From the NCBI RefSeq assembly GCF_016026235.1, contig NZ_CP065613.1: a DNA stretch of 64,000 bases; one strand, given 5' to 3'. Source of the stretch: Escherichia coli. GTDB taxonomy: Bacteria > Pseudomonadota > Gammaproteobacteria > Enterobacterales > Enterobacteriaceae. The position numbers and the translations under genes were made by a program. Shown piece by piece: positions 3,813-42,720 of this stretch (the stretch's first letter is position 1; every line of letters starts with the position of its first letter). Under the pieces are notes generated by a model. It was not told the origin of the DNA and ran no database searches. It was given only the letters and a program-made list of their open reading frames with translations.

Positions 3813-5849
3813 ATGGTACCCTCAACATTTTCTCGTTTGAAAGCCGCGCGTTGTCTGCCTGTTGTTCTGGCAGCCCTGATTTTCGCCGGTTGTGGCACCC
3901 ATACTCCCGATCAGTCCACTGCTTATATGCAGGGCACGGCGCAGGCTGATTCTGCCTTTTATCTTCAGCAGATGCAGCAAAGCTCTGATGATACCAGGAT
4001 CAACTGGCAATTACTCGCCATTCGTGCACTGGTGAAAGAAGGTAAAACCGGGCAGGCGGTTGAGTTGTTTAACCAACTACCGCAAGAACTGAACGATTCT
4101 CAGCGTCGCGAGAAAACACTGCTGGCGGCAGAGATTAAACTGGCGCAGAAAGATTTTGCTGGCGCGCAAAACTTGCTGGCGAAAATCACACCTGCCGATT
4201 TAGAACAAAACCAGCAAGCGCGTTACTGGCAGGCAAAAATCGATGCCAGCCAGGGGCGTCCTTCCATTGATTTACTGCGCGCGTTAATTGCTCAGGAACC
4301 GCTGCTTGGCGCGAAAGAAAAACAGCAGAATATTGATGCCACCTGGCAGGCGCTCTCCTCCATGACTCAGGAACAAGCGAATACGCTGGTGATCAACGCC
4401 GACGAAAATATTCTGCAAGGCTGGCTGGATCTGCAGCGCGTCTGGTTTGATAACCGTAACGATCCCGACATGATGAAAGCCGGGATCGCCGACTGGCAGA
4501 AACGTTATCCGAACAACCCGGGCGCGAAAATGCTGCCAACGCAGTTGGTTAACGTAAAAGCGTTTAAACCAGCCTCGACCAACAAAATCGCCCTGCTGTT
4601 GCCACTGAATGGCCAGGCAGCGGTATTTGGTCGCACTATTCAGCAAGGCTTTGAAGCGGCGAAAAATATCGGCACTCAGCCAGTGGCAGCTCAGGTAGCT
4701 GCCGCACCTGCCGCAGACGTAGCAGAACAACCTCAACCGCAAACCGTGGATGGCGTTGCCAGCCCGGCACAAGCCTCGGTTAGCGATCTGACCGGTGAAC
4801 AGCCTGCAGCCCAGCCGGTGCCTGTAAGCGCCCCGGCGACAAGCTCCGCAGCGGTAATCGCACCCGCAAATCCATCCGCAGAGCTGAAAATCTACGATAC
4901 CTCATCACAACCACTTAGCCAGATCTTAAGCCAGGTTCAGCAGGATGGCGCGAGTATTGTGGTCGGTCCGTTGCTGAAAAATAACGTTGAAGAGTTGCTG
5001 AAGAGCAACACTCCGCTGAACGTACTGGCACTGAACCAGCCGGAGAATATCGAAAATCGCGTCAATATTTGTTACTTCGCGCTTTCACCGGAAGACGAAG
5101 CGCGCGATGCAGCGCGTCATATTCGTGACCAGGGTAAACAAGCGCCGCTGGTGCTGATCCCACGCAGTTCATTGGGCGATCGCGTAGCCAATGCGTTTGC
5201 ACAAGAGTGGCAAAAACTGGGCGGCGGCACCGTTCTGCAACAAAAATTTGGTTCCACCAGCGAATTACGCGCGGGTGTTAACGGCAGTTCTGGTATTGCT
5301 TTAACGGGTAGCCCGATTACTCTCAGAGCGACAACCGACTCCGGCATGACGACCAACAATCCAACACTGCAAACCACGCCAACCGATGACCAGTTCACCA
5401 ATAATGGCGGTCGTGTCGATGCGGTGTACATTGTGGCAACGCCGGGTGAAATCGCTTTTATTAAACCGATGATCGCCATGCGTAACGGTAGCCAGAGCGG
5501 TGCAACGCTGTACGCCAGCTCCCGCAGTGCGCAAGGGACCGCTGGCCCGGATTTCCGACTGGAGATGGAAGGCTTGCAGTACAGCGAAATCCCGATGCTG
5601 GCAGGCGGTAATCTACCGTTAATGCAGCAGGCACTCAGCGCGGTGAATAACGATTATTCACTGGCTCGCATGTATGCGATGGGCGTCGATGCCTGGTCGC
5701 TGGCAAATCATTTCTCACAAATGCGCCAGGTTCAGGGTTTTGAAATCAACGGTAATACCGGAAGCCTGACGGCTAACCCGGATTGCGTGATTAACAGGAA
5801 GTTATCATGGCTACAGTACCAACAAGGTCAGGTAGTCCCCGCCAGTTAA
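3813..5849 (+). CDS. lpoA: Outer-membrane lipoprotein activator of PBP1A
   Basis: 678 aa from ATG 3813; lipoprotein signal with lipobox (ALIFAGC) and a long Ala/Pro/Gln-rich linker. Confidence 0.9.
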
Positions 5850-34586: not shown

Positions 34587-34616
34587 TGAATTGATAAGAA
34601 AAAACCCCGGAGCACG
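34587..34616 (-). terminator. Rho-independent terminator downstream of ftsH
   Basis: GC-rich hairpin ccccgg/ccgggg followed on the minus strand by a run of 6 T. Confidence 0.5.
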
Positions 34617-34659
34617 CCCCGGGGTTTTCGGTACAAATACAGTCATCTGATGCGGGAAC

Positions 34660-38621: not shown

Positions 38622-40055
38622 ATGCGATTTTCCAGATTTATCATCGGATTGACCAGCTGTATAGCGTTTAGTGTTCAGGCCGCAAATGTTGATGAGTACA
38701 TTACTCAACTCCCCGCTGGTGCCAACCTTGCCCTGATGGTGCAAAAAGTCGGCGCGTCGGCCCCCGCTATTGATTACCACAGTCAGCAGATGGCGCTGCC
38801 CGCCAGTACGCAGAAAGTGATTACTGCGCTGGCGGCGTTGATTCAACTCGGCCCCGATTTTCGTTTCACCACGACGCTTGAAACCAAAGGCAATGTGGAA
38901 AACGGCGTACTTAAGGGTGACTTAGTGGCGCGATTTGGTGCCGATCCGACGTTAAAACGTCAGGATATTCGCAATATGGTCGCGACTTTGAAAAAATCTG
39001 GCGTCAACCAAATTGATGGCAATGTGTTAATAGATACCTCCATTTTCGCCAGCCACGATAAAGCCCCCGGCTGGCCATGGAATGACATGACACAATGCTT
39101 TAGCGCTCCGCCTGCCGCCGCCATAGTTGACCGCAACTGTTTCTCCGTCTCGCTCTACAGTGCCCCAAAACCTGGTGATATGGCTTTTATACGCGTGGCA
39201 TCTTATTACCCCGTTACGATGTTCAGCCAGGTACGCACCCTCCCCCGTGGTTCTGCCGAAGCGCAATACTGCGAACTGGATGTCGTACCAGGCGACCTGA
39301 ACCGCTTTACGCTAACGGGATGCCTGCCGCAACGTTCTGAGCCGCTCCCGTTGGCTTTTGCCGTGCAGGATGGAGCCAGCTATGCCGGGGCAATTCTGAA
39401 AGATGAGTTAAAACAGGCAGGTATCACCTGGAGCGGAACACTGCTGCGCCAGACTCAGGTTAACGAACCTGGAACGGTAGTTGCCAGTAAACAGTCGGCC
39501 CCGTTGCACGATCTGCTTAAGATTATGCTGAAAAAGTCGGACAACATGATCGCCGATACGGTTTTCCGCATGATAGGCCATGCGCGCTTCAATGTGCCTG
39601 GAACATGGCGGGCCGGGTCGGACGCCGTGCGTCAGATCCTGCGCCAGCAAGCCGGTGTCGATATTGGAAACACCATTATTGCCGATGGTTCAGGGCTTTC
39701 GCGGCATAACCTGATTGCCCCCGCCACCATGATGCAGGTGCTGCAATACATTGCCCAACACGACAATGAACTTAACTTTATCTCCATGCTGCCGCTGGCG
39801 GGCTATGACGGCTCTTTGCAGTACCGTGCAGGTCTGCATCAGGCGGGCGTGGATGGAAAAGTCTCAGCGAAAACCGGTTCGTTGCAGGGGGTATATAACC
39901 TGGCGGGATTCATTACCACAGCGAGCGGGCAACGAATGGCGTTTGTACAATATCTTTCTGGCTATGCAGTAGAACCGGCGGATCAGCGTAATCGCCGTAT
40001 TCCGTTAGTGCGTTTTGAAAGCCGTTTGTATAAAGATATTTATCAGAACAATTAG
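38622..40055 (+). CDS. dacB: D-alanyl-D-alanine carboxypeptidase/endopeptidase PBP4
   Basis: 477 aa with signal peptide and the SxxK active-site motif (STQK). Confidence 0.95.
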   Translation: MRFSRFIIGLTSCIAFSVQAANVDEYITQLPAGANLALMVQKVGASAPAIDYHSQQMALPASTQKVITALAALIQLGPDFRFTTTLETKGNVENGVLKGDLVARFGADPTLKRQDIRNMVATLKKSGVNQIDGNVLIDTSIFASHDKAPGWPWNDMTQCFSAPPAAAIVDRNCFSVSLYSAPKPGDMAFIRVASYYPVTMFSQVRTLPRGSAEAQYCELDVVPGDLNRFTLTGCLPQRSEPLPLAFAVQDGASYAGAILKDELKQAGITWSGTLLRQTQVNEPGTVVASKQSAPLHDLLKIMLKKSDNMIADTVFRMIGHARFNVPGTWRAGSDAVRQILRQQAGVDIGNTIIADGSGLSRHNLIAPATMMQVLQYIAQHDNELNFISMLPLAGYDGSLQYRAGLHQAGVDGKVSAKTGSLQGVYNLAGFITTASGQRMAFVQYLSGYAVEPADQRNRRIPLVRFESRLYKDIYQNN

Positions 40056-40069
40056 TCAAAAAGAAACCC

Positions 40070-40082
40070 CGGCACATGGCCG
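40070..40082. repeat. IS4 target-site duplication, left copy
   Basis: cggcacatggccg, identical to 41508-41520. Confidence 0.85.
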
Positions 40083-40100
40083 TAATGCCAGTCAGTTAAG
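40083..40100. repeat. IS4 terminal inverted repeat, left
   Basis: taatgccagtcagttaag, 16 of 18 matches to the reverse complement of 41490-41507. Confidence 0.85.
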
Positions 40101-41423
40101 CAACTGACTGGCTCTTTTTCGGGGCTGTGGGGTATTTCCAGGGCCTCTCCTTTACCACTCTCGGGAAGGCCCTTCCCCTTCTCGTCGGTAATTTCACAAG
40201 TTGTCCCATACTTGCAAGATCGCGCATCAGCTCCGGTATACGTCCCGGTGAAGCGCCCTGCAATGTCATCAGCATTCTCATCACCATTCCGCATGATTCT
40301 GAGAAACTCAGTTGATTCGGCCAGTAACCTTTCAGATGTTCCGCCATTTTAATCATCTGATATCTCACCAGATTATAAGCCAGTAAGACACCCCACAGCT
40401 CTTGCTCCACAAGCTCCGGCTTTTTACTTCTCAGCGTCAGCCTGCTCAGTTGCATCGTCTGTTTTATCTCCCTGTATCCCAGTTCGATTTCCCAGCGATG
40501 ACTGTACAGATCCGCCATTTCTCCTCCGGGGAAGCGCATGGCGTCCGTCATCGACGTCAGCAGATGGCAGACTTTTCCTTTGCGCGTCACGGTCAGCAGG
40601 CGGGCTGTCACTTCATTTCCCAGTCCCGGCCACTTTTTTCGTGCCTGCGGGCTGGTTTTCAGCTTCACCAGATGATCGCCTTTACCCAGTTTTCTGAGCT
40701 CTTCATATTGCGCTCCCTTTCTGAGAGGTATCATCCAGTGGCGGTGTTCTCCCGCCAGGCTCCAGGCATTTAACAGTCCCAGTGAGTAATAACCTTTATC
40801 CATTAACGTCAGAGTGTTATCGCCGGTTTGTTCTATAAGTTGCTCAGCAAGCTCATTTTCGCTGTTCTTCATCGTGCCGAAGGCTGCAGCCGTCAGCAGA
40901 TGGCTGGTCAGTTCCATCTGGCAGACCATTTTGACCTGCGGGTAGAGCGCCGGGTTCCCGGCATGTGTCTGGCGGGGAAGGCTGCATCGTTCTCTGGTGT
41001 ATCCGGTGTGCGCCAGAACACACCATCGATGGCCAGCAGGGTCAGGCCGCACCAGTGCGGATGCGGCGTGGCGTTATGCCAGAGCTGCGCTGTTTTCGTG
41101 AACACGCGGCGGACAGCCTCACTTCCCAGGCGCTGGCGGGCCTGAATAACGGCACTGGGGGCAACGAAGGGGCGATTGCCCGGCAGCATGATGTCCAGGC
41201 GATTCACAATCTGGTGAAGAGGTTCTTTACGCTCAAGCGCCATGCCAACAATACACCAGACCATCATTTCGAGGGGAAGACGGCGCTTGCGTAGCGTTAC
41301 AGTACCTGATTCGGCAAGGCAACGAGAGATGAGTTCGGGGTCGAGGTAATCCCCCAGAGAAGTCAGTGGGTTACGCAGAGAATCGTAACGGGATACCAGA
41401 TCAAGAGCCTGTCCAATGTGCAT
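40096..41423 (-). pseudogene. insG: IS4 transposase interrupted by a -1 frameshift
   Basis: Two overlapping minus-strand ORFs (40908-41441 and 40096-41052) together encode 150 + 292 = 442 aa of one continuous transposase. The frame changes at a G4 run, 40974-40977. Confidence 0.8.
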
Positions 41424-41489
41424 AAAAAAATCCGGAAACAAGTGAGCGTTTCCGGATTCTTACACAGCCACTGGATCGGTCAACTGATC

Positions 41490-41507
41490 CTTAACTGATC
41501 GGCATTA
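41490..41507. repeat. IS4 terminal inverted repeat, right
   Basis: cttaactgatcggcatta. Confidence 0.85.
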
Positions 41508-41520
41508 CGGCACATGGCCG
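41508..41520. repeat. IS4 target-site duplication, right copy
   Basis: cggcacatggccg. Confidence 0.85.
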
Positions 41521-41532
41521 GGGTTTTGCTGA

Positions 41533-42720
<1,188 letters not shown>

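Follow-up and report, generated by a model that had tools for sequence, protein, structure and literature searches.

An IS4 copy at the dacB/obgE terminator of Escherichia coli with its transposase frame split at a shortened cytosine run

A complete IS4 between dacB and obgE

The stretch of DNA analysed here, referred to as the window, comprises 64,000 nucleotides of an Escherichia coli genome. Between dacB and obgE it carries a complete IS4 of 1425 bp, one base pair less than the canonical 1426 bp (Table 1). Full-length megablast matches to this element in 5426 complete E. coli genomes were 99.6-99.9% identical, the best ones being 1426 bp long, and carried the annotation 'IS4-like element IS4 family transposase', in part with the label insG. 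Annotated IS4 copies and the window IS4 are 99.93% identical over the full length. This value, together with the Pfam domains Nterm_IS4 and DDE_Tnp_1 and the YREK motif described below, confirms the identification as IS4 made in the first-pass annotation. The length of 1425 bp that it had reported, one below 1426 bp, is fixed by the inverted repeats and by the alignment with intact IS4. We also searched the window for a second IS4 or any other long repeat for internal comparison, and none was found.

Table 1. Positions of the IS4, its open reading frames, predicted RNA structures and neighbouring genes in the window
Feature	Position	Strand	Remarks
dacB (PBP4), left neighbour	38622..40055	+	IS4 inserted into its terminator hairpin
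Target-site duplication, dacB-side copy CGGCACATGGCCG	40070..40082		perfect 13-bp direct repeat
Complete IS4	40083..41507	-
Right terminal inverted repeat TAATGCCAGTCAGTTAAGC	40083..40101	+	3 mismatches to the left repeat
11-bp hairpin	40087..40112	-	-19 kcal/mol, z = -5.5
Overlapping ORF, downstream	40096..41052	-	from the open reading frame list
Downstream transposase frame	40096..40973	-	InsG residues 151-442, TAA stop
Overlapping ORF, upstream	40908..41441	-	177 aa from TTG at 41441; 171 aa from ATG at 41423
Upstream transposase frame	40908..41423	-	InsG 1-150 plus 21 residues out of frame, TGA stop; 171 aa
Frameshift site, G4 run (C4 on the transposase strand)	40974..40977	-	after codon Pro150
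Hairpin followed by U7	41424..41461	-	terminator-like; -24 kcal/mol, z = -5.5
Left terminal inverted repeat TAATGCCGATCAGTTAAGG	41489..41507	-	5' end on the transposase strand
Target-site duplication, obgE-side copy CGGCACATGGCCG	41508..41520		perfect 13-bp direct repeat
obgE/cgtA, right neighbour	41533..42705	-	convergent with dacB, terminator hairpin common to both

The inverted repeats at the two ends are 19 nt long, and the chance expectation for such matches is 0. Both termini start with TAATGCC, in agreement with the end consensus -AATR- that is given for the IS4 family (PMC2266710, Table 1). Members of this family duplicate about one helical turn of target DNA (10-13 bp), and 13 bp are duplicated here; target duplications at the other IS4 copies examined measured 11-13 bp. 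In other E. coli the uninterrupted site (L013) reads AAACCCCGGC(G/A)CATGGCCGGGGTTTT and contains the 13-mer only once, with one SNP. The direct repeat around the window IS4 is therefore a true target-site duplication.

The window element belongs to the IS4 family, subgroup IS4, and hardly differs from the type element. It shares the terminal repeats, the 13-bp duplication, the domains and the YREK motif with IS4 as listed in ISfinder (InsG of E. coli K-12), and differs from this type element by the loss of one base in a C5 run covering codons 149-151, which splits the ORF. The IS4 copies of the K-12 strains MG1655 and C600 showed a single difference to 90-nt probes around the run. Among the family features the only one lacking in the window copy is the single ORF, and it is missed by one base.

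The dacB/obgE target (window 40058-40082 / 41508-41530) folds at -21.8 kcal/mol. IS4 splits this terminator, and both genes may now read into IS4. Exact duplications of 11-13 bp were seen at 14 of the 21 IS4 copies examined, and most of the targets reconstructed from the IS4 flanks (L001-L031) are GC-rich hairpins preceded by an A-run and followed by a T-run. The insertion targets of IS4 thus look like bidirectional intrinsic terminators. The dacB-obgE spacer itself is variable: in some E. coli (L015 and L017-L022, around 5434-5620) it is 185 bp long instead of 40 bp, probably due to an extra repetitive extragenic element located at this terminator. The junction between dacB and IS4 was found neither in the 5426 complete RefSeq E. 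coli genomes nor among the GTDB species representatives. The protein alleles of DacB and ObgE in the window were very common in exact look-ups.

Two stable RNA structures are predicted on the transposase strand. A perfect hairpin of 11 bp overlaps the stop codon of the transposase gene and the right inverted repeat, and a hairpin of 15 bp is located directly upstream of the transposase ATG. The latter resembles a terminator, and would stop read-through transcription that enters the transposase gene from outside.

The split transposase frame

The two ORFs overlap at positions 40908-41052, exactly the interval highlighted in the first-pass annotation, which had suggested that they represent one transposase of 442 aa interrupted by the loss of a base from the G4 run. 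In order to locate the lesion we compared the window IS4 to the intact 1426-bp IS4 on the chromosome of EIEC strain CFSAN029787 (L001), for which the CDS is annotated as intact. The only difference is the C5 run, which is shortened by one C in the window. On the transposase strand the context of the run is ...GCAGCCTTCCCCGCCAGAC... for the C4 form and ...CCTTCCCCCGCC... for the C5 form. Insertion of one C results in a 442-aa InsG that is identical to the intact protein, composed of the shared prefix of 150 aa and further 292 aa. The alignment and the repaired translation thus bear out the suggested fusion of the two minus-strand ORFs as well as the position of the missing base. While the element as written contains two frames, it contains the single ORF that is typical for the IS4 family as soon as one C is restored. 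The split ORF is a lesion or an error within a member of IS4, and there is no sign of another family.

In the repaired protein, Pfam detects the Nterm_IS4 domain at residues 18-109 and the DDE_Tnp_1 domain at residues 126-352 (E = 8e-32). Residues 307-321 match the Y-(2)-R-(3)-E-(6)-K signature of the IS4 family. D133, D209 and E314 are candidates for the catalytic triad, and their spacings of 76 and 105 are inside the range D(60~110)D(100~150)E published for the IS4 family (PMC2266710). The upstream frame covers the Nterm_IS4 domain and the candidate residue D133, while candidates D209 and E314 and the YREK motif are encoded in the downstream frame, in which the first ATG opens an ORF of 277 aa. 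Since the break after Pro150 parts D133 from D209 and E314, no product of the sequence as written has a complete active site. Both ends of this IS4 are the same as in active copies, and judged from these ends it could in principle be mobilised in trans.

The run in closely related genomes

The closest complete genome is that of E. coli FDAARGOS_943 (99.95% identity), which aligned to 62.5 kb of the window with 34 SNPs and no gap. These 62.5 kb contain 221 homopolymers of at least 5 nt (28 of them G/C), and none of them differs in length from FDAARGOS_943. Only two structural differences were detected: IS4 is confined to the window, and an ISEc60 to FDAARGOS_943. This ISEc60, an IS4-like element, lies between ftsH and folP (L042, 8100-9450) and is missing from the window; the 12 bases at window 34609-34620 flank it on both sides in FDAARGOS_943.

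Rare protein alleles encoded in the window (LpoA and an HTH regulator) are labelled E. coli; this label and the proximity to FDAARGOS_943 led us to reject an origin of the window from Shigella. Through these alleles a sister locus and the lineage of the window were reached. Of this lineage, in which roughly 20 other contigs carry the HTH allele and a chromosome of 5,069,623 bp shares the rare alleles, L061 is the copy compared here. At this sister locus (L061, GCA_031665325.1) IS4 occupies the same site, and its junctions agree with those in the window. The alignment of the two spans 20,954 bases, in which 2 SNPs (window 28708 and 28900) and one gap were counted: the run is G5 in L061 where the window has G4. 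The transposase gene of L061 is intact, with a product of 448 aa. The presence of G5 at the same insertion implies that the intact form is ancestral and that G4 is private to the window sequence. The first-pass annotation had named intact copies of identical sequence as a finding that would speak against its reading. Such copies with an uninterrupted frame do exist, L061 at the same locus among them, but they leave the biological status of the G4 untouched. Calculated from its coordinates, an Illumina draft contig of the same lineage (JTCO01000007.1) seems to break off about 60 bp into IS4. This break suggests that the insertion is common to the lineage and that IS4 is present in several copies there. 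The IS4 insertion is therefore older than the split of these strains.

These observations can be combined as follows. In a recent ancestor of the lineage, a canonical IS4 inserted into the bidirectional terminator hairpin that dacB and obgE share. The G4 at 40974-40977 would represent an error of consensus or assembly in a multi-copy repeat, and the real element would then encode the normal InsG transposase of 442 aa. We consider the chances about even that the missing base is technical and not biological. This origin is slightly favoured over a real mutation because the divergence from the intact sister is tiny when weighed against plausible error rates. With 2 SNPs in 20,954 bases, a private mutation in a homopolymer is unlikely a priori. 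In mutation-accumulation experiments with E. coli, a 5-nt run mutates, as a rough figure, only few-fold faster than a single site. Given such rates and the low divergence, the number of real homopolymer mutations expected between the window and L061 is very small.

Slippage at homopolymers is the commonest natural cause of frameshifts, and a genuine private replication slippage from C5 to C4 after the insertion has a somewhat less than even chance of explaining the window sequence. The copy would then be non-autonomous, a 'dead' IS4, giving rise to the 171-aa N-terminal fragment and possibly to the 277-aa C-terminal one, neither with a complete DDE triad. With its ends intact, an IS4 elsewhere with a functional transposase could still mobilise it in trans. 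The unchanged length of all 221 homopolymers supports slippage and argues against an artefact: there is no other indel in 62.5 kb, hence the assembly is not generally error-prone. In addition, the G5 of L061 could itself be a product of polishing that drew the run to the majority form of IS4. One study, however, describes homopolymer-length errors as the commonest residual errors of long-read assemblies, which persist specifically in repeats after polishing with short reads (PMC8812927). A clean unique flank therefore fails to clear the IS4. Residual homopolymer errors known from long-read or hybrid assemblies resemble the situation in the window, namely a single deletion in a G/C run of a multi-copy IS with clean surroundings, with the difference that we infer the artefact here.

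A dead copy or a sequencing error in a homopolymer were the two explanations put forward by the first-pass annotation, and both of them survive these tests. Neither involves a special mechanism of expression. The window element is already known in kind, as a frameshifted IS4 pseudogene or as an assembly slip, and does not reveal a new mechanism. Its biological weight is very small, as frameshifted IS copies are routine and are flagged as pseudogenes by annotation pipelines. In practice it can be used as a flag for quality control, being the sole indel compared to the sister assembly and located in a repeat with several copies, the kind of sequence in which polishing performs worst.

Shortened runs in public IS4 sequences

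The C4 form was present in at least one IS4 copy of 17 of the 2566 E. coli records with IS4, while more than 99% carry C5. A two-frame organisation is thus not conserved among the relatives of the window element. As a control, probes with exact one-base deletions at four homopolymers of IS4 were searched against the 5426 complete E. coli genomes. Exact matches were obtained in 17 records for C5@531 (position within the element; the site affected in the window), in 3 records for C5@347, in 9 records for G5@153 and in 4 records for A6@869. Such deletions are thus rare, with 3-17 of about 2550 records per site. The run affected in the window is therefore the one most often shortened among the four tested (17 versus 3-9 records).

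The overlap of the two frames resembles the organisation of IS1 (InsAB') and of IS3-family elements such as IS911 (OrfAB), which also have an N-terminal DNA-binding part encoded upstream and a catalytic part downstream in the -1 frame. The C-run could act as a programmed -1 ribosomal frameshift site, as a site of transcriptional slippage or as a reversible switch for phase variation. Some full-length transposase would then still be made, or the N-terminal fragment, which keeps the whole Nterm_IS4 domain, would serve as a regulator. The tRNA-Pro on CCC in the P-site could indeed re-pair in the -1 frame on U-UC-CCC-G, which would restore the exact wild-type sequence, and the preferential shortening of C5@531 also fits to a functional role. 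A run of four bases is, however, too short for efficient transcriptional slippage. The junction GCC UUC CCC GCC lacks a heptamer of the type X XXY YYZ, since the base before UUC is a C, which leaves the CCC codon as the only one able to re-pair in the -1 frame. The RNA downstream is not unusually structured (111 nt spanning and following the site, z = -1.6, 12 of 200 shuffles fold as well). In IS1 and IS911, in contrast, a slippery motif (A6G or A7) is conserved and accompanied by a stimulatory structure, and all copies show the two-frame layout, whereas in the window IS4 this layout is rare and derived, the slippery heptamer is missing and no significant structure is present. The single frame in more than 99% of the E. 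coli IS4 records and in L061 characterises C4 as a rare derived state, not as a design. Furthermore, the absence of frameshifting is part of the definition of the IS4 family (PMC2266710). The statement of the first-pass annotation that this family is not known to use programmed frameshifting thus agrees with the literature, and the tests at the window site were negative as well. Considering the missing heptamer, the lack of unusual RNA structure, the rarity of C4 and the family definition, we rejected programmed frameshifting, and a functional role of the frameshift in any of these forms is highly improbable.

A related idea is that the C5 run is a real hot spot for the silencing of IS4 copies, with the 171-aa fragment inhibiting intact copies in trans. 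By analogy to InsA of IS1 or OrfA of IS911, this would represent a built-in brake on copy number, and a biological cause instead of sequencing error would then explain why C4 is found on at least four haplotypes and at many loci. We regard this as very unlikely, though a little less so than a functional frameshift.

The public records bear in two ways on the choice between slippage and a consensus error. More than 131 public contigs, which belong to Shigella and E. coli and come from several platforms, encode the exact truncated product of 171 aa. The loci with the C4 allele are numerous, with a separate target duplication at each of them, and the allele was seen on four or more SNP backgrounds of IS4. 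RefSeq marks the copy of E. coli 675SK2 (CYU58_RS23930) as 'frameshifted'. In this pseudogene the run is contracted to C4 exactly as in the window copy, from which the pseudogene differs by the insertion site and the SNP background (5 SNPs). The spread over backgrounds, loci and contigs, the pseudogenes in RefSeq and the frequent shortening of C5@531 support genuine slippage. A scan of metagenomes for the C4 41-mer returned one SPAdes contig of low coverage, in which IS4 is decayed and truncated, and which is not decisive. Judged from this contig and from those encoding the 171-aa product, genuine C4 alleles probably exist, which speaks against an artefact.

On the other hand, several of the contigs encoding the 171-aa product carry further frameshifts in IS4, and judging from the accession series and the projects, we take most to be long-read or 454 assemblies. 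They were therefore discounted as proof of a real allele. The same assemblies (FDAARGOS_536, ECO_2_R, ECOD1, 23CRST013, 2452 and 14EC007) also recur across the lists of deletions at the control homopolymers, often with different IS4 copies affected. This recurrence is far above the expectation for independent rare events. Clustering by assembly suggests consensus errors in repeats and weakens the case for slippage, although a mutator background could mimic it. Because one-base deletions in IS4 homopolymers cluster by assembly in public genomes, counts of 'inactivated' IS copies, e.g., for the IS expansion in Shigella and EIEC, need caution unless the reads are checked.

A C4 copy was also detected in 17 of 232 records of Shigella virulence plasmids, and most of these 17 are found in GenBank only. 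At one orthologous IS4 locus of the virulence plasmid the run is C5 in pCP301 and pWR501 and C4 in later records, some of them with additional indels. The records of pCP301 and pWR501 were obtained by Sanger sequencing, and the later C4 records are presumably long-read or draft assemblies; this contrast favours a technical origin of the C4 form. The C4 form on pINV could represent a real mutation specific to a lineage or a systematic error of long-read sequencing. The pINV copies of IS4 located beside ISSfl4/IS66 (L054-L060, L030 and L035-L037) represent this orthologous Shigella locus, and the carriers of C4 on pINV comprise plasmid records of S. flexneri (UK, Australia and a strain of serotype 3a) as well as S. 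boydii assemblies.
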